Positions 4,469 through 63,312 of a DNA stretch of 64,000 nucleotides are shown here, piece by piece; the stretch's first letter is position 1; each line of letters starts with the position of its first letter. Made by a program: the position numbers and the translations under genes. Where the stretch lies: contig JAEUSY010000021.1 of the NCBI GenBank assembly GCA_016788295.1, positions 1,417 to 65,416 of the forward strand. Direction: 5' to 3'. The notes below the pieces were generated by a model. The model was not told where the DNA came from, searched no databases, and saw only the letters and a list, made by a program, of their open reading frames with translations. Source of the DNA: Flavobacteriales bacterium. Its GTDB lineage: Bacteria; Bacteroidota; Bacteroidia; Flavobacteriales_F; PHOS-HE28.

Positions 4469-4571
4469 AGTGATCGTGGAACGTCAGGATCCATGCCGAA
4501 CGCATGTCACACGTTCAAAAATGCCAGTCTGTCAGCCAGCTATTCGTGCTTTCCCAATCTGATAACGACCC

Positions 4572-7632: not shown

Positions 7633-7653
7633 TCATTACTGCCTAATGCTCTT

Positions 7654-7690
7654 AAGGGCGCGGCTCCGCAAGGGCCGCGCCCTTTGCTTT
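7654..7690 (+). terminator. rho-independent terminator hairpin
   Basis: AAGGGCGCGGC-tccgcaaggg-GCCGCGCCCTT followed by TGCTTT, 22 nt after the stop at 7632. Confidence 0.6.
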
Positions 7691-7739
7691 GGCATGATCA
7701 GCATCGAATCGGACCTTTGCCCTCGAACACATCCACATC

Positions 7740-8231
7740 ATGCCCAGCTTCGACATACTCTCCAAAGTGGACATTCAGATGCTCGACAACGCCATTAACG
7801 TGGTGAAGCGCGAGATCGACACCCGATATGATCTGCGTGGCACCAACACCACCATTGAACTTGACAAGAAAGCGTTGACGATCCGATTGAGCACGGACGA
7901 CCACATGAAGCTGGACTCGGTACTGGATGTTCTTCTGGAGCGCTCAGGCAAACAAAAAGTGGATGTTCGGAGCTACGACCTTAACGAGGAGCCCGTACCC
8001 AGCGGCAAGTCGCTCTACCGGATCATCAGGGTGAAGCAGGGCATTGAACGGGAGACCGCGAAGAAGATCGTGAAGGCCATCAAGGACAGTGGCCTGAAAG
8101 TGCAGCCCCAGATCATGGATGACATGATCCGTGTGAACGGAAAGAAGATCGATGACCTGCAGGCAGTGATGGCCCTGTGCCGGGAGCAGGACTTCGAGCT
8201 GCCGCTTCAGTTCGAGAACATGAAGAGCTGA
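7740..8231 (+). CDS. yajQ: YajQ-family nucleotide (c-di-GMP)-binding protein
   Basis: 163 aa; 'MPSFDILSKVDIQMLDNAINVVKREIDTRYDLRGT' is the canonical YajQ/UPF0234 N-terminus. Confidence 0.9.
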   Translation: MPSFDILSKVDIQMLDNAINVVKREIDTRYDLRGTNTTIELDKKALTIRLSTDDHMKLDSVLDVLLERSGKQKVDVRSYDLNEEPVPSGKSLYRIIRVKQGIERETAKKIVKAIKDSGLKVQPQIMDDMIRVNGKKIDDLQAVMALCREQDFELPLQFENMKS

Positions 8232-8234
8232 ACC

Positions 8235-9182: not shown

Positions 9183-9228
9183 CGAAGCGCGTACAGGCAG
9201 CATCCTGCGGGCTTCGCGCATTCATACC

Positions 9229-10521: not shown

Positions 10522-10524
10522 TGT

Positions 10525-12393: not shown

Positions 12394-12396
12394 GGT

Positions 12397-14943: not shown

Positions 14944-15005
14944 GGCACAAAGGTGCCCAGGTCCATATGGGGAAGCATTAACACGGGATTAAACCGTGCG
15001 ACGCG

Positions 15006-45347: not shown

Positions 45348-48300
45348 ATGAGACCAAATAACCCATTGCGCTACATACTGCGCTCCCTGCTTGTGCTGTT
45401 GGCCGCAGCGCTTGGCACTACCGCATCCGCCCAGGTCAGTACGAACAGCGGCTCCGGATTGAACCCGACGTATCCGGACCTGGCGGCCGCAATAACGGCG
45501 CTGAACAGCGCCAGCATTACCAGCCCGGTAGTGATCACCCTGACGGGCAACGAGACGGCACCCGCTGGCGGGTATGTCATCACAGCTGAGGGTTCTGCGA
45601 CAAACACCATCACCATTCAAGGAAGCGGAAGCACGCTCACGGCCAGCGGCTCGCTCACGGCTGGCAACCTGAACGATGGGATCTTCAAGCTCGTTGGAGG
45701 TGATTGGATCACGATCCAGGGCTTTACCATGCAGGAGAACCCTGCGAACACCACAACGGCTGCTGCAAGCAACAACATGACGGAATGGGGCGTTGCCCTG
45801 CTCTATGCCAGCAACACGAACGGTGCACAGAACAACACCATCCAGAACAACACCATCGCGCTGAACCGCACGTATGGCAACACTTTCGGGGTGTACAGCA
45901 ACGTGCGCCACATTGATGGACCGACCTCGGCGAACGTGACCACGCTCGCCGATATCGCGAACAACACCACGGCCCCGAACAGCGGGAACAAGGTTTACGG
46001 CAACACCATCAGCAACGTGAACCATGGCATTGTGTTCGTGGGCTCTCCGACCGCTGCCAATATGGATCAAGGCAACGACATTGGCGGTGCCTCGGCAGGC
46101 ACGGGCAACAACATCACAGCCTATGGTGGCTTGGCGGCCGCAACGGCCTACGCCGGCTATCCGACAACGATCATCGCAGGCGCGTATTTGTTGAACCAGA
46201 ACAACTTCAACCTCTCCTTCAACTCCTTCATCAGCGCAAGCCTTAACACGGCCACCGCGCTGCGGGGCATTCTGACCGATTACTCGGTGGCACCCATCGG
46301 AGCGATAACCAACACGGTCCTTAGCAACACTGTGACCTTTACCCAAGCGGGTGCCGCCGGTGTACAAGGCATCACCACGGCAGGGGGCTTCCCGATGTCG
46401 AACGTGACCACCAATGTGAATGGGAACAGCTTCGTGAATAACGTGATCACAGGCAATGCCGGCATGTTCGGGATCGCCAACCTTGGTCAGTTCGGCACGC
46501 TGAACATGAACAACAACATCGTCAGCGGCAACACGAGCGCTGCCACCACCCTGGGTTTCACGGGCATCACCAACCAGGGTGCGGTGATCAACACGATAAA
46601 TATCCAGAACAACCAGGTCGGTACCGAATCGACCAATGCGGTGACGTTCTCCACAGCAACTACCGCAGGCATCACCGGCATCAGCAACACGCAAGGCACG
46701 GCAACGACGACGTTGAACATAACCGGCAACTTCCTGCGACGTTTCAGCCTCGTTACGACCGGGCAGTTCGCGGGTATTATCCAATCCAGTGCGAACATCG
46801 GCGTTGCCATCAACCTGAACAACAACAATCTGGGGACCACAACAGCCAATCTGTACACGTACAGCGGGGCTTCAACCAATACGGTCTTCGGTATCGTGAA
46901 CGCAGCAGGTGCCGCCACGGCAACCCTGAACATGACCGGCAACAACATCACGGGGCTTGTACATACGTTGGCGAGGACCGCAGGTGGTCATAACTACTAT
47001 AACAACCAGACCTTCACTGGTTCCACCAACATCAGTAACAACACGATCACCAATGTCACGGACAATTCGGCAGGCACATCGGCCGTGACCATGATCAGCA
47101 ATAGTGTGAGCCATGCCGCAGGCACTACGCATACGGTGAGCAACAACGCGATCGTGGGCAGCTACACCAAGACCGGCGGCAGTGGCCAGATCGCATATTA
47201 CAATTCCTTCGGCTCATCGTCCAGCGCAGTAACGGAGATCAATAATGGCAACAACTTCTCCAACATGAACTTCACCGGAACAACCGGAACGAACATCGGT
47301 TGGCGAAGCGCGGACGGTGCTACACCCGGGTCCAGGAAGACGGTCACGAACAATACGTTCAGCAATATCACAGGCGGCACCGGCGCGATGAGCTCGGTGC
47401 TCTATGTGGGTTTCAGCGACAACACCTTTGCCGGGAACAACGTGAGCGGCAACGTGATCAGCAACATCACGAACGGGAACAGTATCACTGGCATCTTTAG
47501 CGACGGTCAGAACCAGAACTTCTTCAGCAATACGATCGCGGGATTATCGGCCACGGGTGCCAGCGCCATTGTGAACGGCATCTCGCTCACCGGGGCCACA
47601 GTGCAGAACGTGTTCAAGAACAAGATCTACGATCTGCAGGCGAACGGGGCAACCGCCACGGTGAACGGGATCGTTGTATCTGCGGGCGCCACGGTGAACA
47701 TCCACAACAACCTGATCGGCGATCTGCGCGCACCGAGCACAAGTAGTGCAACCGACGCGGTCCGAGGCATCAGCATCACCTCGGCCACAGCGAACGCGAC
47801 GAACAGTGTTTTCTACAACACCATTTACCTGAATGCGACCTCAAGCGGTGCCAACTTCAGCACAGCGGGTGTATTCCATACGGCGAATGCAACAGCCACC
47901 ACGGGGCGTCTGGAGCTCCGCAACAATAGCATCACCAACCTTTCCACCCCGAACGGAACAGGTAACGTGGCGGCATTCAGGCGCAGTTCTGGCGCTGCTG
48001 GAACCCTGAGCAACTATGCGGCCAGCTCGAACAATAACATGCTCTATGCCGGCACACCAGGCGCCAGCACACTGATCTATGCCGATGGGACCAGCACAGC
48101 CCAAACGCTGACAGATTACCAGAACGGCATATTCACGGCCGGTACGGTTGCCCCGCGCGATGCTGCTTCCGTCTCGGGCGACATAACCGCCCAGTTCCTC
48201 AGCACATCCGGTGCAAGTCCGCTATACCTGCACATGGATCCGTTCACACCGACCATTCTGGATGATGCTGGCTCTTTCGTGGCATCCGTGCTTGATGATT

Positions 48301-51300
48301 TCGATGGCAACATCCGCAGCGTGACCACACCTGAGATCGGAGCTGATGAGATATTGGTCCCTTGTGTAGGCACACCGACACCCGGCAACACCACTGCGAG
48401 CGTGAGCAGCGCATGCGTTGGCCAATCGATCACCCTCGGATTGCAGAATGCGAGCACTGGCGATGGTATTAGCTACGCATGGGAATTCGACAACGGCGGC
48501 GGCTGGACAGCCTTCGGCACCAACGCACCCACACAGGTGGTAACCCAATCCGTTGGCACCAGTTACCGTTGCACGGTGAGCTGTTCGGGTGGCGGTAGCG
48601 CAACGAGCGGAGTGATCAGTGTGCCCATGTCCGCTCCTTTCCCAGTGGACTTCGCGCCCTTGACCTTTGCTCCCAACTGCTGGAGCGCCACGGTGAATGC
48701 CAACCTGCTGCGTGCAGCATCCAATGCGTTCAGCGAACCTGGCAGCGGTTCGGCACAATGGAACTTCTACAGCGCGACGAACAACACCATTCTAAGCCTT
48801 ACCAGTCCCACGTTCACACCTGTTGGCGCTGGCCAACAGATACGCTTCGATGTGGCTGGAACGACCTACACTGGCGGCGAGATCGACTCCATCGCTGTCG
48901 AGGTATCGTCCAACGGCGGAACCACTTGGGCCCTGCTCCAAGGCATGTCGAACAACGTGGGTGGCCTGTTGAACACCGCCATCCCGCAAACAGCCAACTT
49001 CGTACCCACGGGTGCGCAATGGAACAGGCTTGCTTTCCCGGTACCGGCCGGCACCGACCGGATCCGATTCCGTGGTCGTTCCAACTTCGGCAACAGCGTA
49101 TACATCGATAACATCGTACTGGAACCAGTACCGACCTGCGTTGCGCCCAGCGGGGTAGCGGCAATTGGAACGTCAACAACTACGGCTAACCTTACTTGGA
49201 ACGGTACCGGCAACTTCATCGTGGAATACGGCCCTGCGGCCACCTTCACCATACCAGGCACCGGTGCTTCCCAAGGACCCGAAGGAACCAGCACGGTAGT
49301 GACCGGTGTGTCTTCGCCCTATACCATCCCCGGCCTCGTACACCCCACTCAATACCGCGTATACGTCCGTCGTGATTGCACGGGGTCCAACGAGGGATAC
49401 AGCATCAACAGCCCTGGCATCACGTTCTACTCGCAGCCACCTTACGACCAGTGCGAGAGCATTACCTCCTTCCCAAGTGTTGGTGCCGGAGGCAGCATCC
49501 TGCTCTCGGGCAACAACTTCGGAGCCACGGATTCCGAAGGCTTTGGCCAGCTGGTATCCTGGGAAGCGTTCACGCTCACCAGCTGTGTCACCACGCTGAA
49601 CATTGATTACTGCGGCAGCACGCCTGCCCGCACCAATGCTTTTGTGAACCTGTTCGTTGGTTGCCCCCAGTCCGCAGGCTTCATCCCCTGGACCGGCACT
49701 GCAGGCCCTGCCTGTCCCAACGGCAGCGTGAACGTTCCATACGCGAACGTACCTGCCGGAACGTACTACATCGCGATCATGAACCAGACAGGTGCTTCGG
49801 GACCTTACGGTATCACAGTGACGGCCGGTGCGGCATGTCCACCTGCACCAGACAATGACCTGTGCAGCAATGCGACACCCATCACCTGTGGCCAAACCCT
49901 GAGCGGAACCACTGTGAACGCCACTACCACGGGTGCGCCGGCCACGCTGTGCAACGGGCTCCTCAACAACACCTCGGGTGGAGTTTGGTACCAGGTCTCC
50001 GGTGTTTGCGGCAGCGTAACAGCTTCGTTGTGCACCACTGTGCCGACCTGGAACTCGAAACTGGCGGTGTACAGTGGCGCTTGCGGTAGCCTTACCTGCG
50101 TGACCACCAACGATGACTTCTGTGGCACGCTCAGCCAAGCCACTTGGACCGCTGATGCTTCACTGACCTACTACATCTACGTGTTGGGCGTGAACGTGAG
50201 CACTTCGGGTACTTTCGATCTGGCGCTCACCTGCGCGAACACCGCAGTGCAGGCATCGGCCACCGCGGTCGATGATTGTGCGAACGATCAGTTCAGCGTA
50301 CCGGTGAACATTACCGGACTTGGCGGTGCCGCTTCGGCCACCATCAATTACAGCGTTAACGGAACGCCCCAGACCCCGCTCAGTGGGTTGGGCATCGGTG
50401 TCACCAACCTCGGCCCCTTCGCGGCCGGAGCTGAAGTGGCCATTACGGTGAGCAATGGTGTTGCGGGTTGTGCCACGAACCTTGGCAGCTACTACAGCAA
50501 CTGCCCGGTCACCATCACCTGCGGATCAACGCTCGTGGTGAACCATTGCTACACCAACAACGATACGCGCACTTGGACCTTCAACTCACCCGTTCTCGGA
50601 GAGACCGTTACCGTGACCTTCGTTGCGGGCACCATGGCCCCGAACGATGTGGTGCGCATCTACGATGGTGTGGACAATACGGGCAGCGTTCTGGTGAGCG
50701 GCAACTTCGCCAGCCTCCCTGGTGTTACCGCCACATCCACCGGACAGAGCATCTTCATTGAGATCGATAGCGATGCGAGCGGAAGCTGCTTCACGGGTGG
50801 TGCCACCTCATGGCAGTTCGAAGTGGAATGCACCGCGGGTTGCACCGATCCGGACGGCGTTGTTTCGCCGAACGTGAACTGCGCCACCTACAGCTTCACG
50901 CTGGATATTGAGATCCTGGGCACGGGCGACGCGGCCACCACCGATCTGGTCTACACCGTGAACGGTGGCAGCCCCATCACCATCCCCGGCCTGGACTTCG
51001 ATAGCGGCATCCAGACCATTGGCCCCTGGCCGATCGGCACCACCATCAACGTGGTACTGGAACACGAGACCGATGGAGCCTGCAACAAGAACCTGGGCAA
51101 CTTCACACCAGGACTTGCCTGTCCGCCTCCTGGAACCTCTTGCGCACTGCCGTTCCAAGTGAACAGCTATCCCTTTACGCAGAGCAACACCACTTGCGGC
51201 AAGGGCAACAACGTGGTCGGCACACAGTGTGGGCTGGGCGCCAACTATGGCGGTGGTGAGGACTTCGTGTACCAATTGAACATCAGCAGCGCGGGTGATT

Positions 51301-54035
51301 ACCAGATCAGCGTGCAACTGACCGGTGGTGCCAGCTTCGCCGGATGGTTCCTGAAGAGCAGCACCAACTGCGGTAACGCCAGCCAGTGCATTGCCAACTC
51401 GGTGACCACTGCGGTCAATGGTACGGCCAGCAGCATTGTAACGCTCGCTGCGGGTACCTACTACGTGATCGTCGACTCGCGTCCGCTACCCAATTGTGTT
51501 GCCTACAACATCAGCATCACTCAGTTCGTGGCACTACCCGGTGACAATTGCACCAACGCCATCAGCCTTGCTACAGGCCTTACCTGCACCCCAACTGCAG
51601 GCAGCGTGGCGGGCATGACGCAGACCATTGCGGCCGGTGTGTGCGGTGGAACGGCGGATGACGACATCTGGTACAGCTTCGTGGCCACGGCAACGAGCCA
51701 TGAAGTGATCCTCGACGCGGCCTTCGATGCCGTGCTTGAAGTGCGCAGTGGTGCCTGCAACGGCGTGAACATTGCCTGCGCGGACAACAACTTCAGCACA
51801 GGCATTGAGCAGCTAAGCCTTACCGGCTTGACCATTGGGGCCACCTACTACGTTCGCCTCTGGTCATGGTCCGGTGTAGTTCAGACCACACCCACCTTCA
51901 CCATCTGTGTAAGTGCTCCTCCTCCGCCTTACGACCCCTGCACCAGCATCGCGAACATCTCAGCTTGTGATGTTCCCACTGGCGCGGTATCGACCACAGC
52001 AGGCAGCGGCGCCTTCAACAACTATGGTGGACCCTTCGGAACGCCTGGCCAGGAGAAGATCTTCACCTTCACCGCATCGGTCACGGGTGTTCACCTGATC
52101 AACGTGACGCAGCTGACCGGCAGCTGGATCGACTTCTTCTGGAAGGCGGTCGGCACCTGCGATGCCACGGGCTGGAACTACTACGATGATGTGCTCGTTA
52201 CAGGTATTGTGGCACCTACCGGTGTCCCACTGAACTTCACGGCCGGCACCACCTACTACATCATGTGGGATGCCGAGGATACCGGTGCACGTACCGTGGA
52301 CTTCACGGTTGTTTGCCCGATACCCGTGCCTGCGAACGACCTCTGCGCCAACGCCATACCAGTGGCCTGCAACAGCACCGTCGCCGGCACCACATTGGGC
52401 AGCACCAACACAGGCAACCCGGGCACCTGCACAACGGACCTGAGCACTGCTGGTGGCGTTTGGTACACGGTGCAGGGCTGGAACGGACAGATGACCGCCA
52501 GCCTCTGCGGAAGTGGTTTCGATACCAAGATCGGCGTGTTCACGGGTTCATGCGGTGCCCTCACCTGTGTGATCGGCAATGATGACTTCTGCGGCCTGCA
52601 GAGCCAGACCACCTGGACCGGCACCCAAGGCACCACGTACTATGTGTATGTAACCGGATTCGGAGCGAACACCGGTGCATTCACCATGACCGTGACCTGT
52701 GGCGACACCAACCCGGCCTGCACCACCAACGGCCTGACCCTGGAGCTGGAGACCGACGCCAACTTCCTGCAGACCAGCTGGGAGATCGTTGCCCAAGGCA
52801 CCAACGTGGTCGCTTTGAGCGGAAGCAACCTGCCCGTACAAGGCATCATTACCCAGAGTGCCTGCCTGCCTGATGGCTGCTACCGTTTGCGCGTGCTCGA
52901 TGCAGGTGGCGATGGTATCAGTGGCGGTGGCTACATCCTGCGTACCCAGGGCAGCAACCAGCGCATCATCGACAACCGTGACAACTTCACTACGGGCAGC
53001 GTGAGCGCAGTGATCGGCAATGGTGGCTTCTGCCTGCCCTTGGGCACCGACAAGCTGATCTACACCAGCTGCGACAAGCTCGACTGGGTGAACAACCAGT
53101 TCCTTGTGGCCGACCCCAACCCGGCGGTAAGTGCCCAATGGCAAGTGGGCAACCAAACGGACGACGGTTACCAGTTCTGGATCTTCGATCCGAACGGCAC
53201 CTACGGCTACACCAAGTTCCGCAACCACGCCACCAGCGATGGTTTCGGTCCCCCCAGCGCCATCCGTGCCTGCCACATGCAGATCAACAACTGGAGCCCG
53301 AACCAGATCCCCGCCAACGTGCTGATGAACGTGAAGGTGCGCAGCCGTGTGAACGGTACCAACAGCGCATGGGGTCCGGTTTGCCGCTTCAAGATCGATC
53401 CGGTGCGTGCGGCCTGCCCCCTCACCAAGCTCATGGACATCCCCGGCAACCAGTTCTTCAGCTGCAACGTTACCCGCACATGGGGCGGCAACAACCGCGT
53501 ATACGCTCGTCCGGTGGATGGTGCAACGCAATATCAATTCCGCTTCAGCAATGCGGAACTGGCCCAGCCCGTTGTACGCACGAACACGACGTACTACGTG
53601 AACCTGAACTGGACGCCCGCACTGCCCAACGGCACCTACCAGGTGCAGGTGCGTGCCTTCAAGAACGGCGCTTGGTGCGTTACCAGCCTGCCTTGGGGTG
53701 ATGTGTGCAACGTGACCATTGTGGGCAGCACGGCCATGACCCAGAACGGCGGTGGCACCGTGAGCACAGGCGATGCCAAGCTCGCGATGTTCCCTAACCC
53801 CAACCGTGGCGATCTGCTCACCCTGAGCCTAAGCGCTGTGGAGGAAGGTGTGAACACGGTAAGCGTGGACATCTACGACCTCACCGGTGCCGTGGTAAGC
53901 AGCCGTACCATCGCCGTGAACGATGGCATGGTGTACCAAGTGCTGGAACTGAACGAGATGGCCAGCGGCCTCTACATGGTGAACATCACCGCAGGTAACG
54001 AGCGCTACACCGAGCGATTGGTGATCAGCAAGTGA
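45348..54035 (+). CDS. giant (~2,895 aa) T9SS cargo protein: N-terminal Asn/Thr/Gly-rich beta-solenoid-like repeats, three Cys-rich ~125-aa modules, CUB-like module, conserved C-terminal module and Por_Secre_tail
   Basis: signal peptide 'MRPNNPLRYILRSLLVLLAAALGTTASAQ' (start 45348; the track ORF starts at 45186); C-terminus 'FPNPNRGDLLTLSL...GLYMVNITAGNERYTERLVISK'. Confidence 0.7.
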   Translation: MRPNNPLRYILRSLLVLLAAALGTTASAQVSTNSGSGLNPTYPDLAAAITALNSASITSPVVITLTGNETAPAGGYVITAEGSATNTITIQGSGSTLTASGSLTAGNLNDGIFKLVGGDWITIQGFTMQENPANTTTAAASNNMTEWGVALLYASNTNGAQNNTIQNNTIALNRTYGNTFGVYSNVRHIDGPTSANVTTLADIANNTTAPNSGNKVYGNTISNVNHGIVFVGSPTAANMDQGNDIGGASAGTGNNITAYGGLAAATAYAGYPTTIIAGAYLLNQNNFNLSFNSFISASLNTATALRGILTDYSVAPIGAITNTVLSNTVTFTQAGAAGVQGITTAGGFPMSNVTTNVNGNSFVNNVITGNAGMFGIANLGQFGTLNMNNNIVSGNTSAATTLGFTGITNQGAVINTINIQNNQVGTESTNAVTFSTATTAGITGISNTQGTATTTLNITGNFLRRFSLVTTGQFAGIIQSSANIGVAINLNNNNLGTTTANLYTYSGASTNTVFGIVNAAGAATATLNMTGNNITGLVHTLARTAGGHNYYNNQTFTGSTNISNNTITNVTDNSAGTSAVTMISNSVSHAAGTTHTVSNNAIVGSYTKTGGSGQIAYYNSFGSSSSAVTEINNGNNFSNMNFTGTTGTNIGWRSADGATPGSRKTVTNNTFSNITGGTGAMSSVLYVGFSDNTFAGNNVSGNVISNITNGNSITGIFSDGQNQNFFSNTIAGLSATGASAIVNGISLTGATVQNVFKNKIYDLQANGATATVNGIVVSAGATVNIHNNLIGDLRAPSTSSATDAVRGISITSATANATNSVFYNTIYLNATSSGANFSTAGVFHTANATATTGRLELRNNSITNLSTPNGTGNVAAFRRSSGAAGTLSNYAASSNNNMLYAGTPGASTLIYADGTSTAQTLTDYQNGIFTAGTVAPRDAASVSGDITAQFLSTSGASPLYLHMDPFTPTILDDAGSFVASVLDDFDGNIRSVTTPEIGADEILVPCVGTPTPGNTTASVSSACVGQSITLGLQNASTGDGISYAWEFDNGGGWTAFGTNAPTQVVTQSVGTSYRCTVSCSGGGSATSGVISVPMSAPFPVDFAPLTFAPNCWSATVNANLLRAASNAFSEPGSGSAQWNFYSATNNTILSLTSPTFTPVGAGQQIRFDVAGTTYTGGEIDSIAVEVSSNGGTTWALLQGMSNNVGGLLNTAIPQTANFVPTGAQWNRLAFPVPAGTDRIRFRGRSNFGNSVYIDNIVLEPVPTCVAPSGVAAIGTSTTTANLTWNGTGNFIVEYGPAATFTIPGTGASQGPEGTSTVVTGVSSPYTIPGLVHPTQYRVYVRRDCTGSNEGYSINSPGITFYSQPPYDQCESITSFPSVGAGGSILLSGNNFGATDSEGFGQLVSWEAFTLTSCVTTLNIDYCGSTPARTNAFVNLFVGCPQSAGFIPWTGTAGPACPNGSVNVPYANVPAGTYYIAIMNQTGASGPYGITVTAGAACPPAPDNDLCSNATPITCGQTLSGTTVNATTTGAPATLCNGLLNNTSGGVWYQVSGVCGSVTASLCTTVPTWNSKLAVYSGACGSLTCVTTNDDFCGTLSQATWTADASLTYYIYVLGVNVSTSGTFDLALTCANTAVQASATAVDDCANDQFSVPVNITGLGGAASATINYSVNGTPQTPLSGLGIGVTNLGPFAAGAEVAITVSNGVAGCATNLGSYYSNCPVTITCGSTLVVNHCYTNNDTRTWTFNSPVLGETVTVTFVAGTMAPNDVVRIYDGVDNTGSVLVSGNFASLPGVTATSTGQSIFIEIDSDASGSCFTGGATSWQFEVECTAGCTDPDGVVSPNVNCATYSFTLDIEILGTGDAATTDLVYTVNGGSPITIPGLDFDSGIQTIGPWPIGTTINVVLEHETDGACNKNLGNFTPGLACPPPGTSCALPFQVNSYPFTQSNTTCGKGNNVVGTQCGLGANYGGGEDFVYQLNISSAGDYQISVQLTGGASFAGWFLKSSTNCGNASQCIANSVTTAVNGTASSIVTLAAGTYYVIVDSRPLPNCVAYNISITQFVALPGDNCTNAISLATGLTCTPTAGSVAGMTQTIAAGVCGGTADDDIWYSFVATATSHEVILDAAFDAVLEVRSGACNGVNIACADNNFSTGIEQLSLTGLTIGATYYVRLWSWSGVVQTTPTFTICVSAPPPPYDPCTSIANISACDVPTGAVSTTAGSGAFNNYGGPFGTPGQEKIFTFTASVTGVHLINVTQLTGSWIDFFWKAVGTCDATGWNYYDDVLVTGIVAPTGVPLNFTAGTTYYIMWDAEDTGARTVDFTVVCPIPVPANDLCANAIPVACNSTVAGTTLGSTNTGNPGTCTTDLSTAGGVWYTVQGWNGQMTASLCGSGFDTKIGVFTGSCGALTCVIGNDDFCGLQSQTTWTGTQGTTYYVYVTGFGANTGAFTMTVTCGDTNPACTTNGLTLELETDANFLQTSWEIVAQGTNVVALSGSNLPVQGIITQSACLPDGCYRLRVLDAGGDGISGGGYILRTQGSNQRIIDNRDNFTTGSVSAVIGNGGFCLPLGTDKLIYTSCDKLDWVNNQFLVADPNPAVSAQWQVGNQTDDGYQFWIFDPNGTYGYTKFRNHATSDGFGPPSAIRACHMQINNWSPNQIPANVLMNVKVRSRVNGTNSAWGPVCRFKIDPVRAACPLTKLMDIPGNQFFSCNVTRTWGGNNRVYARPVDGATQYQFRFSNAELAQPVVRTNTTYYVNLNWTPALPNGTYQVQVRAFKNGAWCVTSLPWGDVCNVTIVGSTAMTQNGGGTVSTGDAKLAMFPNPNRGDLLTLSLSAVEEGVNTVSVDIYDLTGAVVSSRTIAVNDGMVYQVLELNEMASGLYMVNITAGNERYTERLVISK

Positions 54036-54046
54036 GCTGAGCACCT
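52727..54046 (+). repeat. copy 1 of a ~1.3 kb direct repeat (3' end of giant gene 1); nearly identical to copy 2 from about 52960 onward
   Basis: direct nucleotide comparison: 53041-53500 vs 62175-62635, and 53740-54046 vs 62920-63197, differ at only a few percent of positions, and the match includes 11 nt after the stop codon. Confidence 0.8.
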
Positions 54047-54064
54047 GGACCAACACTGAAGCGA

Positions 54065-54110
54065 ACGCCCCGCTCACCTCCCGGATCCCCGGGAATGGTG
54101 AGCGGGGCGT
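54065..54110 (+). terminator. rho-independent terminator after the first giant gene
   Basis: ACGCCCCGCTCACC-(18-nt loop that itself contains CCCGG/CCGGG)-GGTGAGCGGGGCGT. Confidence 0.6.
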
Positions 54111-54447
54111 CCGCATGTCGGCCCGGCCATGGCATTAACTCTCCGCAACGGCAACCACCTTGCGCCCGAAAAACCCGTCCCTATTGAGCGTTCGTGATCA
54201 AGGCGATCAGTTGCCTGTTGTTCAAAAGTTTTATTTGTGTTGCTTCTATCACAAGGAACCTTTAATCTTGACAACCTGATAACAATTAAAAGCTCAAAGT
54301 ATCACTGACCTACACCGTAACACCATCCGCCACGAATGGCACCAGCTGATCAGTATGCCTCCCAGCCACCCCTTAGGCTGAACCAACGGAAGTGACCCGC
54401 TTTGTCACCACACCCTGACGACTTTCCTAACCCAAAACCAAGAACTC

Positions 54448-57400
54448 ATGAATTGTCGAACTACGCGCAAGCCTGCGGCAGGGCGGAAGCGGTGGTGGAA
54501 CGGCCTGCTCGCAATGGCAGTGACCCTTTTGACCGCGCTACCGTCGCTCGCCCAGGTCAGCTATTCGGAGAATTTCAATGCCAGTGCTGGCGGATGGACC
54601 GGCATGGGCTACTTCACAGGCGCCACGGCTTGTGGTGGTTCTGGTGGGGCCATGCGCGCCAACCTGTACTCGTCCGTTACCACCAACAGCTTCGTTTCGC
54701 CGCTGGTGGGAACCTCGCAGGGCGGGGCCATGACCATCACCTACGATTACAAGGCGATGATCTGGAGCGCCAATACGGACGCCCAGAACCCTTGGGGTAG
54801 CTTCATTGTCCAGTATGGCGCTACCGCCTCCGGACCTTGGACCAACATCACCACCATCTCGGAAGAGGCACAGACCAGTGGTGTATGCATACCCAAGTCG
54901 CACTCCTTCACCCCACCGGCAGGTGCCCTGTATATCAGGTTCGCCTCCACATGGTCCTCCGGAGACTACTACCTGAACTTCGACAACATCACGGTGTCCG
55001 AGCAACTGGCACCCTGCACAGAGCCGATCTCCCCGGGTAACACCGTGGCTTCGGTGGCAACACCCTGCTTCAACACCAACTTTACGCTCAGCCTCTCCAC
55101 CCCTCCGGTAGGAAGTGGGCTTGCGTACCAGTGGCAGCGTTCGGCTGACAACACCTTTGCCAGCCCGACGAACCTTGGCACGGCCGCCACGCAGGTCACT
55201 TCGCACGCTTCAGGCGACAACTTTTGGTACCGCTGCCTGGTTAGCTGCAGCGGTGGTGCCCAAGTGGAATCCACTCCGCTCGAAGTTGGGACCAACAGTT
55301 CCGTGGCGCAATGCGGAAACTATTGCACCACCAACCTCTACTCCACCGGTACTGGTGCCGGTGACCTGATCTCGAACGTGGGCATTTCCGGCACCACGCT
55401 CAGCAACAACACGGGCTTCGTGGCCGGTACTCCTTCGTACACCTTCTACCTGCCCAACCCGCCAAGCAACACCCGCACCGCCACCCTGCAGGCCGGTTCT
55501 TCCTACAACGTGAACGTATCCACCGGCGAGTGGGGCGACCAGGGTTTTGCCGTCTGGATCGACTACAACGATGATGGTGTGTTCTCCACGCCTTCGGAGC
55601 GTATCGGTGCCACTCCGGGCCGCATCGGCGCTGGCTTCACGCCAGGCCAGGTGAACGCTTCAGCATCCTTCCCCATCACCCTCGCCTGCAACCCACCCCT
55701 TGGCGTTCACCGCATGCGTGTGCGTTGCGTGTATAACCTCAACGGTGTTAGTGTTGACCCCTGCCTGAACTACACTTGGGGCGAGGTGGAGGATTATCTG
55801 GTGACCATTACTGCACCCGACCCTTGCCCTGCGCCGAGCAACCTGGTTGCCGTGGTGAACGGGAACAGCGCCACGCTGACGTGGAACACCGGCTGCGCCG
55901 AAACACTTTGGAACGTGCATGTGCAACCCGCTGGCGGTGGCACCCCTGTGGTGGCTTCCGACCCCGGCGTGGGCCCCACCTCTTCCTTGGTGGTGAACGG
56001 CCTCGTGAGCGGTACCACCTATGAGTTCTATGTGCAGGCCGATTGCATCGGTGACGGTACCAGCTCATGGGCTGGTCCTGTGCAGTTCGCCCCACCCCCA
56101 TTGAACAACGAATGCACAGGCGTTACCCCCCAAACGGTGGGTGCCTTGGGCAGCGCGACCTTCAACGGCAACAGCACCGGCGCCACGGATACCGAAGGCT
56201 TCGGAGGTCTTGTGGTTTGGGAGGCCTTTACGCTCACCGAATGCGTTCAATCGCTTGAGGTGAACTACTGCGGCAGCAACCCAGCACGCACCGTGGCCTA
56301 TGTGAACCTCTTCACCTCGTGCCCCTTCGGCGCGCAGCCCTTCATCGGCGCCACCAGTGTGCTGAACGACTGCCCCAACGGCGGCCGTAGGCACCTGTAT
56401 GGCAACCTGAGCCCCGGCACCTACTACATCGCCATTTCCGAGGGTATCGCAGGCGGCAGCGGCCCATATTCGGTACAAGTGCTTCCCGGTGCTTCGTGCC
56501 CACCGCCTGCCTGTGTTACAACACCTAACCCCGCTAACGGAGGAACGGCATGCGCTGGTCAGGCAGTAACGCTTAGCTGGCCTGCTGTACAATATGCGAC
56601 CGGTTATGATGTAGTCGTGGACGGCAACACCGTGGCCATCAACCAGCCAGGCACCACCTTCAACGCTGGCATTCTTGCAGCTGGCCCGCACACCTGGAGC
56701 GTTGTGCCCCAGAGCGCACAAGGCCCTGCCACCGGCTGCCCCACCTGGAACTTCACTGCCAACGTGCTCGGTTGCTACTGCGCAAGCGGAGCGATCAACA
56801 CTGGTGACGAGGAGATCTACAGCGTAACGGTGAATGGCAACACCAACGGTGCAGGAGCCGCTGATTGCGGTGTGACCGCACCTGGTTCGGGATCCATTGC
56901 CCAGCGTTATGCCAACTACTTCCCACTGGGTCCGATCTTCTCGGTACAGAAAGGTGTGCAAGCCACATTCAACGTACAGGAGGATGAGTGTGACGGCGCA
57001 CCGTACTACCCCTTCGGCACCGCGATCTGGATCGACTTCGACCAGAACGGCGTGTTCAGCGATGCCACGGAGAAAGTGTTCGTAGAAGCCGCTACGGCCA
57101 CCGGCCCCCGCAACGTGACCGGCACCTTCAACGTGCCCATGACCGCCCTGCTCGGCACCACCGCCATGCGTGTGACCGTTTCCGAGGGCAACTCCGGTGA
57201 CCTGTTGACCTCTTGCCTGAGCTACGGCTACGGCGAGACCGAGGACTACCTGATCACCATTCTGCCACCGCCTCTGCCTGCGACCGCGCTGGTGAGCGTG
57301 GTGGACGACTGCAACGCCGCCACCTTCGACCTGAGCGTTGACATCACCAGCCTTGGCGATGGCGTAAGCGCAACCATCATCTACACCGTGAACGGCGGTT

Positions 57401-60400
57401 CGCCCACCAGCGTGCCCGCCAACCTGGGTGTGAACGTGCTGGATAACGGCGGCCTTGGCTTCGCGGCACTGGACGTGGTGAACATCGTGGTCGATAACGG
57501 TACCGTGAGTACCGCCGACCTCGGCAACTACTCGTCCAGCTGCCCCATCGAGATCACCTGCGGTGTGACCACCACGGTGAACTATTGCTACCAGAACAAC
57601 GACACCCGTTCCTGGACCTTCACCACGCCGATCCTGGCCGAGACCATTACGTTGAGCTTTGTGAGCGGCACCATGGCCCCGGATGATGTGATCCGCGTGT
57701 ACGACGGTACCGATAACACAGGTGCTTCGCTCACCAGCGGCAACTTCGCCAGCCTCGTGGGTGTTACGGCCACCAGCTTCTCCAACTCGATCTACATCGA
57801 AGTGGAAAGCAACAGCACCGGTAGCTGCTACGATGGCGACCCCGACGCCAGTGCATGGGTGTTCGAAGTGGAATGCACCGCTGGTTGCACTGACCCTGAG
57901 GGTATTGTGAGCGTGAACAACTGCGATGGCACCATCGCCGTGGAAGTGCTGAGCGTGGGTGATGCAACCTCCACTTCGTTGAGCTATTCAGTGAACGGTG
58001 GTCCTGCCACGATCGTCCCCGGTCTGGTCGACTTCGACATTGCGAACATCGGTCCCTTCACGCCAGGCCAGAGCGTACAGCTCTTCCTGCTGCACGAAAC
58101 GGACGGTGCCTGCAACAAGAACCTCGGCGCATTCACCATCCCATCGCCACCGAACATTTCGTTGACCGCTTCTGCTTCGCCCAGCACGATCTGCCCCAAC
58201 GGCAGCACACAGCTTTCAGCAGCGGCCACCACGCCCGTGGGTAACATCACCAACTACCAGTTCAGCACATTGACCGGTGCGGTGGACGCCATGGCAGGTG
58301 CTACCAGCCTCGGCGTGAGCGGTGATGATGCTCAGAGCGCGCTTACGAACATCGGCTTCCCCTTCATCTACGAAGGCAATAGCTTCACCCAGTTCTCCGC
58401 CAGCTCCAACGGTGCTGTACGCTTGGGTGCTGCTGTGAGCACGGCCTACATCAACACAGGTGCGTTCCTATCGAACACGCTGTATGCCCTGTGGGATGAC
58501 CACAGTGCGAACTCGGTGACCACCCTGCTCACCGGTACCGCTCCCAATAGGATCCGCATCATCAGCCTGAACCTGAACATTTCGTTCGGTACGGCCTCCG
58601 TGGTGCAGGTTTGGCTGTACGAAGGTTCCAACGCCATCGAGTACCGTTATGGTCCTGCGGCTACCACCGGCAGCGCCACTGTCGCCGTTGTGGGCGGCAG
58701 CACGGCCAACTACCAGAGCGTGCAGAGCTTTGCCAGCCCAACAACGAGCACCTCGGTGCGTAACGACATCCTGAACGGCTGGCCCGGCGCAGGCACGGTC
58801 TATCGGTTCGCTGCTCCGTCGGTAACGGCCACCTACAGCTGGTCGCCTGCCACCTTCCTGAGCGACCCGAACATCGCCAACCCTGTGGCCAGCGGTGTAA
58901 CGGAGACCACCACCTACACGGTAACGGCCATCGCCAACGGCTGCCCCTTCACCACCACGGTAACGGTGAACGTGTCCCCGGCCATCGAGTCGGCGGCCAT
59001 TACGCCTGAAGTAGCCTCGATCTGCACGGGCACGCCCGTCACCCTCACGGCGGTTCCCACCGGCGGACTTGCTCCTTACACCTACGCATGGACAGACCCG
59101 AACGGCAACCCTGCCGGCACGGCCAGCACGCAAAGCGCCACCATTGGTGGTACGTGGACCGTGGTGATCACCGACGCCTGCGGCACCTCGGCAGCGGCCA
59201 CGCGCACCGCAACGGAGACCCCGACGCCGATCGTGAACATCTCTGCCACCGCACCCATTTGCGTGGGCGGAGCTGTGACCCTCACGGCAACGTCTGACCA
59301 GCCCGGCAGCACCTTCGTATGGACGGGTGCAGCGCCTGTGGGTGGAAGCACCGCGGATAACGTGACCATCAGCAGCCTCACCACGGCCAACAACGGCACC
59401 TATTCGGTGGCCGCTTCTGCCGCCGGTTGCACGGGCACGGCCGCCTATGCTCTGAATGTGATCACGCCGCCGAACATCACCTCGCTAACGGCCACCCCGA
59501 CTGCCATTTGCGCAGGCACGGGCACCAGCCAACTGAACGTTACCGCACCTGCCACGGGTTATACCATGAGCATTGGTTCGTTCAGCACCGAGGCCTGCCA
59601 GGCAACGGCCGGTCCTTCGGGTGATGATGGTGTGATCCCTGCACCGGGTGCGAACATCGGGTTCAGCTTCACCTACTTCGGTGTCACCTACACCAACTTC
59701 ACCATCTCCACCAACGGTAACATCCAGTTGGGCGATGGCAGCGGTGCAGCGAACAACCCGGCGTACAGCAACGCGTGGTTCGAAACGGCGATCCCGAACG
59801 CTGCCGTACCGAACAACATGATCGCGTTGGCATGGGACGACTGGAACGCATCCCCCGGCCAGATCACCTACGGCACCATTGGTGTGGCACCGAACCGCAA
59901 ATTGGTGGTGTGCTTCAACAACATCACCGGCCGTGGCGATGGTGGCTCTGGTACCCTGAACGCCCAAGTGGTGTTGGAAGAAGGTACCAACCGCATCATC
60001 ATGAACCAGACCACGATCAACAGCTCCTCCTTCAAGGTGCAGGGTCTGGAAGATGCAACCGGTAGTGCGGCCAGCTTCTCCATTCCCGGTCGTAACAACG
60101 ATGTGAACTGGAGCACCACCAACGAGACGCGCATCTTTACGCCGATCGTGTTCGACTACGCCTGGAGCCCCGCCGCCAACCTCACGGCCACCAACATCGC
60201 CAACCCGGTGTTCGGTCCTGTGTCCGCTGGCAGCTACCCGCTCTCGGTGAACGTTTCCAACCAAGGTTGCGTGTCCACCGGCACGGTAACGGTGACCGCT
60301 GGCGAGCCCATGACGGCCGGCCAGGCGGAGATCGTGCCTGCCAACCCCTTCTTCTGCGGTGCCACCAGCGTAACGCTGACGGCCAACCCGCTGGGTGGTG

Positions 60401-63186
60401 GTGGCCCCTACACCTACGCGTGGACCCGTCCGGACAACAGCCCTGCTGGAACCGCCCAGACCCAGGCCGCTGATGCTGCTGGTACGTGGACCGTGCTGAT
60501 CACCGACAACTGCGGCGGCCAGGCCACCGCGACCACGGTGGTTGAACAGCGCCCTGTACCCACGGCCACGGCCAGCGCGAACATTGGTTGCATTGGACAG
60601 ACGCTACAGCTCACCGGCACCAGCAATGGAGCCAGCTTCAGCTGGACCGGCCCCAACGGCTTCGCCAGCACGGACCAGAACCCCAGCATCGCCGCCGCTA
60701 CGGCCGCTGCTGCAGGTAACTACGTGTTCACGGCCACGCTTAACGGCTGTGCTTCGGCTCCGAGCACAGTGGCTGTATCCATGAACCCGACGCCGGCTAT
60801 CGTTAGCACCACTGCCACACCGGCTCTGGTGTGCGAGGGTAGCAACAGCACCTTGCAGGTGAACCTGGCCGCGCCTTCGGCCTACTGTTCCACCTCATAC
60901 AGCACCGGCACAGGCTTCGGCGACTTCCTGTCATTGGTCAGCATCCCTGGCACTACGCTGAACAACAGCACCGGTGCATCGGCTGCGCCCTACTACACGC
61001 TGTTCCCGGCAGCCGGTTCCACAACGGCCACCCTTGCAGCAGGCACGAACTATACGCTGAATGCCATTGCAGGGTCCTACACGATCAACGATGTAGCGGT
61101 CTGGATCGACTACAACCAGGATGGCGTGTTCCAGGAACCAGGTGAGAAACTTGGTCAGGTGGACAACTTCGGCGCAGCACCGACCGTGGCAAGCATCAAC
61201 TTCACGGTTCCCCTTACAGCGCTTTCCGGAACCACGCGCATGCGTGTTCGTGAAGCGGACCAGGGTGTTACGAACGGCATGTCCGCTTGCGGCGCGCTCT
61301 CCTTCGGCGAGGTCGAGGACTATGTGGTCACCATTACGGGTGGCGCTAGCTTCGGCTATGCTTGGAGCGGTGGCACCTTCCAAGGTGGTATCAGCAACAC
61401 GCAGAGCGTAACGGCAACTGCCATCGGCACCACCACGGCCTACAGCGTGGAAGTGACCTCTGCTGCCGGTTGCGTAGCCACTGGCAACGTAACGGTGAAC
61501 GTGACCCCGCTGCCCGTTGTGGATTGCGGTGGCCCCTACCCCACCCTGTGCGTGGCCGATGCGAGCTTGCAGCTCAATGGCAGCCCTGCAGGTGGCACGT
61601 GGAGCGGTACCGGTGTTACCAGCGGTGGCCTCTTCAACCCTGCCTCCGGTACACAGACCCTCACCTACACGGTCACCCAGAGCGGCTGCTCCAACAGCTG
61701 CACGGTAACTGTGAACGTGAACAGCACGGACACCGATGGTGATGGCATTGCCGATTGCATCGACAACTGCCCGCTGATCGCAGGCCAGATCGGAAGCGCG
61801 TGCACCGTGCCCGGCTTCGTGATCGGTACGATCGATGCCAACTGCAACTGCGTGGGCCAGGCCTGCACCACCGACCTGGCGCTGCAGTTCCAGACCGATG
61901 CCAATGGTTTCCAGAACACCTGGGAACTGCGTACCTCCGGCTCCAACCTGTTGGTGCAGAGCGGTGGTGGCTGGTACCCCGGTGGCGCTGTGATCACCGA
62001 CAACACCTGCCTGCCTAACGGCTGCTTCTACCTACGCGTGTTCGACGCCGCCGGCGATGGTATGGTCAACGGTGGTTACATCCTGAGCACCGCCAGCGGT
62101 GATCGCATCATCGACAACCGCAACAACTTCAACAGCGGTAGCGTGAGCGCGGTGATCAACAATGGTGGCTTCTGCCTGCCTTTGGGTGGCGACAAGCTGA
62201 TCTACACCAGCTGCGACAAGCTCGATTGGGTGAACAACCAGTTCCTTGTGGCCGATGCCAACCCGGCAGTGAGCGCGCAATGGCAAGTGGGCAACCAAAC
62301 GGACGACGGTTACCAGTTCTGGATCTTCGATCCCAACGGCACCTACGGCTACACCAAGTTCCGCAACCACGCCACCAGCGATGGCTTCGGACCGGCCAGT
62401 GCCACCCGTGCCTGCCACATGCAGATCAACAACTGGAGCCCCAACCAGATCCCCACCAACGTGCTGATGAACGTGAAAGTGCGCAGCCGTGTGAACGGTA
62501 CCAACAGCGCATGGGGTCCGGTGTGCCGCTTCAAGATCGATCCGGTGCGTGCGGCCTGCCCCCTCACCAAGCTCATGGACATCCCCGGCAACCAGTTCTT
62601 CAGCTGCGGTGTTACCCGCAACTGGGGTAGCTCTGCTGCCGACAGGGTGGTGGCCAGGACCGTGGACGGAGCAACGCAGTACCAGTTCCGCTTCAACAAC
62701 TCTGAGCTGGCCGCTCCGGTGGTCCGCACCACGACCACCCCTGTGCTGCAGCTCAACTGGACGCCCGCCCTGCCCAATGGTACCTACCAGGTGCAGGTGC
62801 GTGCCTTCAAGAACGGTGCATGGTGCATTACCAGCCTGCCTTGGGGCGATGAGTGCAATGTGACCATTACGGGCAGCCCCGTTGGCCAGAGCATGAACCT
62901 CCAGGCCACTGGCAGCACCAGCGCTGCTGAACTGACCATGTTCCCCAACCCCAACCGTGGCGATCTGCTCACCCTGAGCCTGAGCGCTGTGAAGGAAGGT
63001 GTGAACACGGTAAGCGTGGACATCTACGACCTCACCGGTGCCGTGGTAAGCAGCCGTACCATCGCTGTGAACGATGGCATGGTGTACCAGGTGCTCGAGC
63101 TGAAAGAGATGGCCAGCGGCCTCTACATGGTGAACATCACCGCAGGCAACGAGCGCTACACCGAGCGCCTCGTGATCAGCAAGTGA
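54448..63186 (+). CDS. giant (~2,912 aa) T9SS cargo protein with three GEVED domains, Ig-like repeats, CUB-like module, conserved C-terminal module and Por_Secre_tail; paralogue of 45348..54035
   Basis: signal peptide '...LLAMAVTLLTALPSLAQ'; GEVED motifs 'YTWGEVEDYLVTI', 'YGYGETEDYLITI', 'SFGEVEDYVVTI'; C-terminal ~440 aa nearly identical to the first giant protein. Confidence 0.7.
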   Translation: MNCRTTRKPAAGRKRWWNGLLAMAVTLLTALPSLAQVSYSENFNASAGGWTGMGYFTGATACGGSGGAMRANLYSSVTTNSFVSPLVGTSQGGAMTITYDYKAMIWSANTDAQNPWGSFIVQYGATASGPWTNITTISEEAQTSGVCIPKSHSFTPPAGALYIRFASTWSSGDYYLNFDNITVSEQLAPCTEPISPGNTVASVATPCFNTNFTLSLSTPPVGSGLAYQWQRSADNTFASPTNLGTAATQVTSHASGDNFWYRCLVSCSGGAQVESTPLEVGTNSSVAQCGNYCTTNLYSTGTGAGDLISNVGISGTTLSNNTGFVAGTPSYTFYLPNPPSNTRTATLQAGSSYNVNVSTGEWGDQGFAVWIDYNDDGVFSTPSERIGATPGRIGAGFTPGQVNASASFPITLACNPPLGVHRMRVRCVYNLNGVSVDPCLNYTWGEVEDYLVTITAPDPCPAPSNLVAVVNGNSATLTWNTGCAETLWNVHVQPAGGGTPVVASDPGVGPTSSLVVNGLVSGTTYEFYVQADCIGDGTSSWAGPVQFAPPPLNNECTGVTPQTVGALGSATFNGNSTGATDTEGFGGLVVWEAFTLTECVQSLEVNYCGSNPARTVAYVNLFTSCPFGAQPFIGATSVLNDCPNGGRRHLYGNLSPGTYYIAISEGIAGGSGPYSVQVLPGASCPPPACVTTPNPANGGTACAGQAVTLSWPAVQYATGYDVVVDGNTVAINQPGTTFNAGILAAGPHTWSVVPQSAQGPATGCPTWNFTANVLGCYCASGAINTGDEEIYSVTVNGNTNGAGAADCGVTAPGSGSIAQRYANYFPLGPIFSVQKGVQATFNVQEDECDGAPYYPFGTAIWIDFDQNGVFSDATEKVFVEAATATGPRNVTGTFNVPMTALLGTTAMRVTVSEGNSGDLLTSCLSYGYGETEDYLITILPPPLPATALVSVVDDCNAATFDLSVDITSLGDGVSATIIYTVNGGSPTSVPANLGVNVLDNGGLGFAALDVVNIVVDNGTVSTADLGNYSSSCPIEITCGVTTTVNYCYQNNDTRSWTFTTPILAETITLSFVSGTMAPDDVIRVYDGTDNTGASLTSGNFASLVGVTATSFSNSIYIEVESNSTGSCYDGDPDASAWVFEVECTAGCTDPEGIVSVNNCDGTIAVEVLSVGDATSTSLSYSVNGGPATIVPGLVDFDIANIGPFTPGQSVQLFLLHETDGACNKNLGAFTIPSPPNISLTASASPSTICPNGSTQLSAAATTPVGNITNYQFSTLTGAVDAMAGATSLGVSGDDAQSALTNIGFPFIYEGNSFTQFSASSNGAVRLGAAVSTAYINTGAFLSNTLYALWDDHSANSVTTLLTGTAPNRIRIISLNLNISFGTASVVQVWLYEGSNAIEYRYGPAATTGSATVAVVGGSTANYQSVQSFASPTTSTSVRNDILNGWPGAGTVYRFAAPSVTATYSWSPATFLSDPNIANPVASGVTETTTYTVTAIANGCPFTTTVTVNVSPAIESAAITPEVASICTGTPVTLTAVPTGGLAPYTYAWTDPNGNPAGTASTQSATIGGTWTVVITDACGTSAAATRTATETPTPIVNISATAPICVGGAVTLTATSDQPGSTFVWTGAAPVGGSTADNVTISSLTTANNGTYSVAASAAGCTGTAAYALNVITPPNITSLTATPTAICAGTGTSQLNVTAPATGYTMSIGSFSTEACQATAGPSGDDGVIPAPGANIGFSFTYFGVTYTNFTISTNGNIQLGDGSGAANNPAYSNAWFETAIPNAAVPNNMIALAWDDWNASPGQITYGTIGVAPNRKLVVCFNNITGRGDGGSGTLNAQVVLEEGTNRIIMNQTTINSSSFKVQGLEDATGSAASFSIPGRNNDVNWSTTNETRIFTPIVFDYAWSPAANLTATNIANPVFGPVSAGSYPLSVNVSNQGCVSTGTVTVTAGEPMTAGQAEIVPANPFFCGATSVTLTANPLGGGGPYTYAWTRPDNSPAGTAQTQAADAAGTWTVLITDNCGGQATATTVVEQRPVPTATASANIGCIGQTLQLTGTSNGASFSWTGPNGFASTDQNPSIAAATAAAAGNYVFTATLNGCASAPSTVAVSMNPTPAIVSTTATPALVCEGSNSTLQVNLAAPSAYCSTSYSTGTGFGDFLSLVSIPGTTLNNSTGASAAPYYTLFPAAGSTTATLAAGTNYTLNAIAGSYTINDVAVWIDYNQDGVFQEPGEKLGQVDNFGAAPTVASINFTVPLTALSGTTRMRVREADQGVTNGMSACGALSFGEVEDYVVTITGGASFGYAWSGGTFQGGISNTQSVTATAIGTTTAYSVEVTSAAGCVATGNVTVNVTPLPVVDCGGPYPTLCVADASLQLNGSPAGGTWSGTGVTSGGLFNPASGTQTLTYTVTQSGCSNSCTVTVNVNSTDTDGDGIADCIDNCPLIAGQIGSACTVPGFVIGTIDANCNCVGQACTTDLALQFQTDANGFQNTWELRTSGSNLLVQSGGGWYPGGAVITDNTCLPNGCFYLRVFDAAGDGMVNGGYILSTASGDRIIDNRNNFNSGSVSAVINNGGFCLPLGGDKLIYTSCDKLDWVNNQFLVADANPAVSAQWQVGNQTDDGYQFWIFDPNGTYGYTKFRNHATSDGFGPASATRACHMQINNWSPNQIPTNVLMNVKVRSRVNGTNSAWGPVCRFKIDPVRAACPLTKLMDIPGNQFFSCGVTRNWGSSAADRVVARTVDGATQYQFRFNNSELAAPVVRTTTTPVLQLNWTPALPNGTYQVQVRAFKNGAWCITSLPWGDECNVTITGSPVGQSMNLQATGSTSAAELTMFPNPNRGDLLTLSLSAVKEGVNTVSVDIYDLTGAVVSSRTIAVNDGMVYQVLELKEMASGLYMVNITAGNERYTERLVISK

Positions 63187-63197
63187 GCTGAGCCGAC
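61863..63197 (+). repeat. copy 2 of the ~1.3 kb direct repeat (3' end of giant gene 2)
   Basis: see copy 1; identity falls to protein-level similarity upstream of about 62105. Confidence 0.8.
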
Positions 63198-63207
63198 CAA
63201 CTGAATG

Positions 63208-63240
63208 AAAAAGCCCCCGCCAATTGGCGGGGGCTTTTTC
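63208..63240 (+). terminator. strong rho-independent terminator after the second giant gene
   Basis: AAAAAGCCCCCGCC-aatt-GGCGGGGGCTTTTT, perfect 14-bp stem followed by a T-run. Confidence 0.8.
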
Positions 63241-63312
63241 GTTGTAACAAGCCAAGACCCATGCACACACTTCCGCGTGCGACCCTTGTAGCAGGAGCAC
63301 AGAAACAACGAA

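Follow-up and report, generated by a model that had tools for sequence, protein, structure and literature searches.

In Porphyromonas gingivalis, hagA and kgp are large cargo genes of the type IX secretion system (T9SS) that lie in tandem, and their 3' ends, including the sorting domain, have been described as virtually identical (PMC9328147, PMC5266723). These genes (and also rgpA) are modular and show domain rearrangements, and homologous recombination between their repeats deletes kgp together with the interval (PMC9328147, PMC5266723). Here, we describe a comparable pair of tandem genes, A and B, in a stretch of 64,000 nucleotides from a Flavobacteriales bacterium (the window; contig JAEUSY010000021.1 of assembly GCA_016788295.1, positions 1,417 to 65,416). 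The similarity of their 3' ends is very probably the product of strong purifying selection plus repeated patchy gene conversion, which would act mainly between the two neighbours and occasionally involve other members of the same family. Conserved ends that serve as recombination substrates, while variable parts diverge or are swapped and patchy tracts are left behind, are also found in babA/babB of Helicobacter pylori and the opa genes of Neisseria. Unlike those genes, which have been studied as systems of antigenic or phase variation in pathogens, A and B are homogenised only at the constant 3' end, and no evidence was found in A/B for switching of expressed variants.

Like hagA and kgp, A and B are large modular T9SS cargo genes in tandem with a common 3' end that includes the sorting domain. 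However, their common block is 86% identical and a mosaic, it encodes three unannotated beta-sandwich domains plus the C-terminal sorting domain (CTD), no deletion variant was seen, and they belong to an environmental, uncultured representative of the Flavobacteriales. Neither Cleaved_Adhesin (CAD) nor DUF2436 is among the Pfam matches of A and B at E ≤ 0.01, and the relation to hagA and kgp is therefore one of analogy and not of homology. A search of the literature on gene conversion or concerted evolution in connection with the T9SS yielded no treatment of cargo genes outside P. gingivalis. The two genes are long open reading frames (ORFs) arranged head to tail on the plus strand, and the original prediction of two tandem T9SS cargo genes of about 2,900 amino acids is borne out by their lengths and by sorting domains that score above the cut-offs:

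45348..54035 (+), gene A, 2,895 amino acids, predicted T9SS type A cargo (from the ORF and its start codon)
54448..63186 (+), gene B, 2,912 amino acids, predicted T9SS type A cargo (from the ORF)

The assignment of both proteins as T9SS type A cargo is made from sequence, namely from a C-terminal domain of about 80 amino acids that exceeds the curated Pfam/NCBIfam cut-offs. In A this domain scores 40.7 bits with TIGR04183 (cut-off 23) and 37 bits with PF18962 (cut-off 27), and in B 40.2 and 40 bits, respectively. Judged by eye, the N-termini of A and B are signal-peptide-like, with positive charge at the start, a core of hydrophobic residues, and an A-x-A/AQ motif, and the ATG at 45348 is most plausibly the start of gene A, where it would open a typical signal peptide (segment MRPNNPLRYILRSLLVLLAAALGTTASAQ, also judged by eye). 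The other domains of gene A are limited to weak GBD_T9SS_assoc and fn3 matches, and it appears to be built largely of beta-sandwich modules. Gene B encodes three GEVED domains, fn3, Ig_7, and TSP_3 in addition to the sorting domain. No catalytic domain was recognised in A or B with Pfam/NCBIfam.

Both proteins end in a unit of five parts, hereafter called the cassette, which consists of three domains (D1 to D3), a linker, and the CTD:

52683..54035 (+), cassette of A, 450 amino acids, with approximately D1 at 52710-53042, D2 at 53055-53402, D3 at 53415-53732, the linker at 53736-53777, and the CTD at 53778-54032
61828..63186 (+), cassette of B, same five parts, 79% identical in amino acids to the cassette of A

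The 3' ends of the two genes had been described as near-identical, differing by a few percent of nucleotides. This did not hold, as identity over 52960-54046 is 86.5% (87.5% with gaps excluded) and is distributed as a mosaic. What did hold is that the 3' end is the only long nucleotide match between the genes and that divergence is not uniform along them: BLASTN of A against B gave a single long match (52861-54042 against 62006-63193; 1,197 columns, 86.1%) and, besides it, two short matches inside an older shared module. The mosaic consists of three tracts and two islands:

53000..53468 (+), tract 1 (B 62142-62610), 94.0% identical nucleotides, covering the end of D1, all of D2, and the start of D3
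53469..53613 (+), island 1 (B 62611-62761), 64% identical nucleotides with silent sites saturated, covering most of D3
53614..53729 (+), tract 2 (B 62762-62877), 90.5% identical nucleotides, covering the end of D3
53730..53795 (+), island 2 (B 62878-62946), 55% identical nucleotides with indels, covering the disordered linker
53796..54042 (+), tract 3 (B 62947-63193), 95.5% identical nucleotides, covering the sorting domain, the stop codon, and 7 further nucleotides

An identity of about 98% is reached only in sub-tracts (for example 53264-53465, with 4 mismatches), and the longest run identical between A and B comprises 84 nucleotides (53382-53465). The clustering of mismatches goes beyond chance (p = 0.0008, permutation test on the longest identical run). 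The number of synonymous substitutions per synonymous site (dS) between A and B within the block ranges from 0.05 to 0.35 in the tracts and reaches saturation in the islands, with sharp borders between them, and the similarity stops 7 nucleotides past the stop codons (GCTGAGC), apart from a short GACCAAC match after an indel. The ratio of nonsynonymous to synonymous rates (dN/dS) in the tracts is about 0.1, and island 1 is still about 75% identical in amino acids between A and B despite its silent saturation. Taken by its substitution pattern, the 3' block reads as a patchwork of tracts of different ages, most of it not very recent. Hypermutation of the islands by a diversity-generating retroelement was also considered and rejected, as the mismatches are spread over all four bases in both copies with no bias towards adenine; for island 1 this reading is further countered by an 82% relative in another paralogue.

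The classical test for concerted evolution is made possible by JBKDXR01, a metagenome-assembled genome (MAG) found in a scan of species-representative genomes, which carries the syntenic locus with the orthologues A' and B'. Its contig L001 shows the same dnaK-transporter-MORN flank, followed by A' (5015-11362) and the 5' part of B' (11807-15841), while the 3' part of B' is found on contig L002 (1-4062). Residues 1006-2895 of A are 83.6% identical in amino acids to A'. When the four genes were compared along the alignment, the topology changed near the end of D1. In the segment tree upstream of about 53015, A groups with A' at 100% bootstrap, whereas in the neighbour-joining tree of tract 1 the same-genome pairs are recovered, (A,B) at 78% and (A',B') at 81.5%. 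Among the quartet sites, the orthology pattern gives way to the same-genome pattern at the point where the concerted block begins:

53017..53021 (+), 5' limit of the concerted block (maximum chi-square 50.4, permutation p about 1e-4)

Upstream of this breakpoint, 44 quartet-informative sites support orthology and 3 the concerted pattern, compared with 8 and 32, respectively, downstream of it to 54002. The comparison of orthologues that the original prediction suggested shows orthologues grouping upstream of about 53017 and same-genome paralogues downstream.

It could be argued that purifying selection alone keeps the paralogues alike, with no exchange of DNA. The dN/dS of the tracts agrees with such constraint, as does the fact that tract 1 is 80-86% identical in amino acids even to the cassettes of other organisms; given this high conservation of the cassette elsewhere, part of the similarity between A and B is plain constraint. 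Silent sites, however, separate constraint from conversion. In codons that specify the same amino acid in all four genes, 16 sites follow the concerted pattern, 2 orthology, and 4 the cross pattern, and this excess of 16 to 2 places the signal in the DNA and not in co-adaptation at the protein level. Together with the derived states common within each genome (described below) and the jumps of dS from 0.05-0.35 to saturation at sharp borders, it renders selection alone highly improbable.

The dS values point in the same direction as the silent-site counts. In tract 1, A and B are separated by a dS of 0.20, compared with 0.34 for A-A'; past the first 110-112 codons of the module, the values are 0.18 for A'-B' and 0.35 for B-B'. 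For the flanking dnaK, dS between the two genomes is 0.44. In one segment of the alignment (A 53599-53698, roughly tract 2), A' and B' are 100% identical. When the character states were polarised with five other paralogues, 8 derived states were found to be exclusive to A+B and 7 to A'+B', as opposed to 1 for A+A' and 2 for B+B'. The presence of within-genome derived states in both genomes indicates that exchange took place in both lineages after their split. This bears on the alternative of a one-off replacement of the cassette, in which a single ectopic recombination or partial duplication was followed by no continuing conversion. One event in one lineage could indeed produce an unrooted split of A+B against A'+B', and an overall dS of about 0.2 shows the block to be, for the most part, not of very recent origin. 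Both same-genome pairs are, however, closer than any between-genome pair and have their own derived states (8 and 7), which calls for events in both lineages, the ages of the tracts differ (dS about 0.05 to 0.35), and two patches of the cassette, island 1 of A and D1 of B, have different partners. A one-off replacement is accordingly improbable, although it is the least improbable of the alternatives to repeated conversion.

An artefact of assembly or binning, with collapsed or chimeric repeats, would also be conceivable in such a locus, in particular because contigs L003 and L005 of the related MAG start or end inside the repeat family. Yet A and B differ at 123 of the 994 aligned positions of the block of about 1 kb and share no identical run longer than the 84 nucleotides mentioned above, so that the repeat has not been collapsed; a mis-join is able to swap ends and not to create similarity; and an independent assembly shows the same pattern. 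We therefore regard an artefact as exceedingly unlikely.

The exchange goes beyond A and B. Island 1 of A is placed in the tree with L003, a third paralogue lineage, to which it is 82% identical in nucleotides (69% to B), and the clade (A,L003) has 100% bootstrap. The other version of island 1 is common to B, A', and B', with 93-100% identity between A' and B'. Two origins are equally possible, transfer of this patch into A from a further family member or overwriting of A' by B', and with either of them the island has a history separate from that of its flanks. Likewise, D1 of B (61845-62100) groups with paralogue L004 of the related MAG (83% identical nucleotides, 92.5% bootstrap) and is only 69% identical to B', from which it follows that the exchange reaches the first domain of the cassette and involves a fourth member of the family. 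These patches might instead have been imported from alleles of the cassette family in foreign strains or species, with no internal copy as donor. For island 1 of A, indeed, the window contains no partner, and the closest relatives sampled are in other organisms (L003 with 82% of nucleotides and P0017 with 84% of amino acids). Import is nevertheless very unlikely, since in each of two independent genomes the main tracts have their nearest relative within that genome, at a distance of 9 kb, and since the cassette is present in multiple copies within genomes, which makes an internal donor the simpler source.

Several observations weigh against repeated conversion between neighbouring copies. The excess of within-genome identity in tract 1 is small (94% and 93%, compared with 89-92% between genomes), the bootstrap values of both same-genome clades are only moderate, and the baseline conservation of tract 1 is high across the whole cassette family. 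Furthermore, the comparison covers a single related genome with both orthologues, and that genome and probably also the window are metagenome assemblies. The donor of island 1 in A lies outside the window, so that this exchange may have run in either direction, and neither a structural variant nor a conversion event was directly observed. The core of the original prediction, 3' ends that evolve in concert by gene conversion, is upheld by the topology switch, the silent sites, the derived states, and dS; the near-identity on which it was based and the restriction of the exchange to two genes were not upheld, and much of the similarity in protein sequence reflects strong constraint on a cassette common to the whole family.

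In the preferred explanation, selection plus repeated conversion, patches of the last ~1 kb (from the end of D1 to 7 nucleotides past the stop codon) would be overwritten by non-reciprocal homologous recombination, presumably of the RecA type, between direct repeats 9.15 kb apart. The process would be self-limiting where similarity drops, that is, at the diverged D1 in the 5' direction and at the unrelated terminators in the 3' direction. Copies that reside in the same genome would thereby evolve together, while the payloads upstream evolve independently and are even replaced. The first 1,005 amino acids of A (45348-48362) are unrelated to the first 216 of A' (L001 5015-5662), and with the rest of the protein 83.6% identical, this indicates that the N-terminal payload was replaced between sister species; the suggestion that the N-terminal parts diversify was correct in this respect. 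By analogy with the P. gingivalis locus, deletion or switching of the 9-kb interval through recombination is plausible (PMC9328147). Behind A and B, hairpins are predicted that are both strong and mutually unrelated:

54066..54109 (+), hairpin after gene A, with no U tract (folded stretch 54036-54125: -53.3 kcal/mol, z = -5.5)
63204..63243 (+), terminator-like hairpin with U tract after gene B (folded stretch 63187-63250: -34.1 kcal/mol, z = -6.6)

A scan for consensus promoters and terminators gave no hit after A or B; the hairpin of B was probably missed by it because it is a perfect palindrome.

At the protein level, BLASTP of A against B finds three common blocks in the same order and at different offsets (block coordinates in A are numbered from the TTG at 45186). 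The third is the C-terminal block (A2500-2949/B2461-2912, 79% of amino acids), and the other two are the following modules:

49029..49844 (+), shared module M1 (B 55681-56505), BLASTP A1282-1553/B412-686, 40% identical amino acids, with the FGxLVxWEAFTLT motif and a weak fn3 match
50253..51128 (+), shared module M2 (B 57286-58152), BLASTP A1690-1981/B947-1235, 54% identical amino acids, with the CYxNNDTRxWTF and VECTAGCTDP motifs

All of the protein motifs quoted in the original prediction were recovered where it had placed them. Its CUB-like label for M2 found no support, as neither copy has a CUB or any other Pfam match at E ≤ 1. With a dS between A and B of 1.57 for M1 and 1.17 for M2 (silent sites saturated), both modules read as old duplications. 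About 65% of each protein has no match in the other at E ≤ 1e-3 (BLASTP), for which reason duplication of the whole gene was rejected, and the description of A and B as paralogous accordingly applies to the three blocks (40%, 54%, and 79% of amino acids) and not to the remainder.

The cassette was modelled with AlphaFold2 from 54 homologues (mean predicted local distance difference test score, pLDDT, of 89.7). The model is all beta, with sandwiches at residues ~10-120, 125-240, and 245-350, a linker at 352-365 whose pLDDT below 50 marks it as disordered, and the sorting domain at 366-450, itself modelled as a beta-sandwich in agreement with the T9SS type A fold. Many invariant Cys, His, Asp, and Trp residues raised the question of an enzymatic role, which was rejected because the model consists of four beta-sandwiches and its structure matches comprise sandwich and CTD folds only. 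D1-D3 match no Pfam family. Searched without the sorting domain among 1.84 billion proteins, they retrieved 415 representative clusters at E ≤ 1e-30. Of 209 full-length matches, 204 place the end of the unit 85-115 amino acids before the C-terminus, and 203 of these 204 carry the CTD. Proteins that bear the cassette range from 430 to 3,665 amino acids. An Ig-like or Fn3 domain before the type A sorting domain is a common architecture of T9SS cargo (CTD structures 8qb1, 8glk, 8gl6). Unlike that architecture, the three domains described here form one conserved unit that ends ~100 residues from the C-terminus and is present in at least 415 clusters. The block is thus a fixed C-terminal cassette on many different payloads, strongly conserved regardless of conversion.

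In the scan of species-representative genomes, the cassette was found at 77 loci, all of which belong to MAGs of uncultured Flavobacteriales/Bacteroidota, and single genomes carry as many as six or more copies. A protein search of metagenome sources returned nothing closer than 86% of amino acids, and a plasmid collection contained no match to the 3' repeat. Two or three cassettes in tandem occur at 14 related loci with pairwise identities from 73% to 96% (for example 96% over 1,369 nucleotides at L059). Homogenised neighbouring copies thus recur within the family and are not universal. In JBKDXR01, contigs L003 (1-414) and L005 (1-175) begin inside copies of the repeat that codes for the sorting domain. 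The cassette repeat family breaks short-read assemblies.

A and B lie in ordinary chromosomal surroundings, together with dnaK (40068-41966), priA, and genes for a Na+/H+ antiporter and a MORN-repeat protein. At 5944-7632 (+), a third T9SS cargo gene encodes a PA domain plus a sorting domain, which makes it compatible with a host that has a T9SS. Its sorting domain is only ~30% identical in amino acids to those of A and B, and the sorting domain linked to the cassette therefore represents a distinct subtype within the same genome. The intergenic region between A and B (54036-54447) has 53% G+C compared with 59% for the window. It contains an AT-rich stretch (TTTTATTTGTGTTGCTTCTATCACAAGG... within 54200-54290), ~180 nucleotides upstream of the start codon of B, which may be the promoter region of B itself; a sigma-70 consensus scan gave no match in this stretch. 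Synteny with the related MAG stops at the stop codon of B. Behind B, the ATG at 63313 (+) starts a frame that is still open where the window ends at 64000 (229 amino acids, with an Ala/Gly-rich stretch); it has no Pfam match, and nothing that corresponds to it lies beyond B' in the related MAG. There, a third giant gene follows B' (L002 ~4500-13019, +) and runs off the contig; it carries B-like modules, including an M2-like block with 49% identical amino acids, and the window has no counterpart of it after B. No RNA family of Rfam was detected anywhere in the window.

The T9SS recognises its cargo by the sorting domain. This domain is cut off at the cell surface, and several species then attach the newly formed C-terminus of the cargo to the surface. 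D1-D3 would then be a surface-proximal stalk that remains on the cell, and the linker the region of cleavage for removal of the CTD. A further, more speculative reading, which we consider rather unlikely, is that D1-D3, linker, and CTD together constitute a clade-specific extended T9SS sorting and anchoring unit, a constant region matched to one surface partner, kept uniform by conversion and serving as a recombination handle for swaps of payload. If true, it would explain both the replaced N-terminus of A relative to A' and the hundreds of architectures that have the same end.

Gene conversion of this sort is already well known, and it is seen here in an unannotated tail module. This widely used C-terminal cassette without Pfam annotation is the most useful by-product of the analysis, and with at least 415 clusters it merits definition as a domain. 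Its repeat family is able to mislead orthology calls and to break metagenome contigs. For the biology of these bacteria, the comparison of the two genomes quantifies concerted evolution in giant genes for surface proteins from an uncultured environmental lineage, where it is confined to the secretion-proximal end, and behaviour known from the gingipain/HagA genes of an oral pathogen is thereby also seen in an environmental member of the same phylum.

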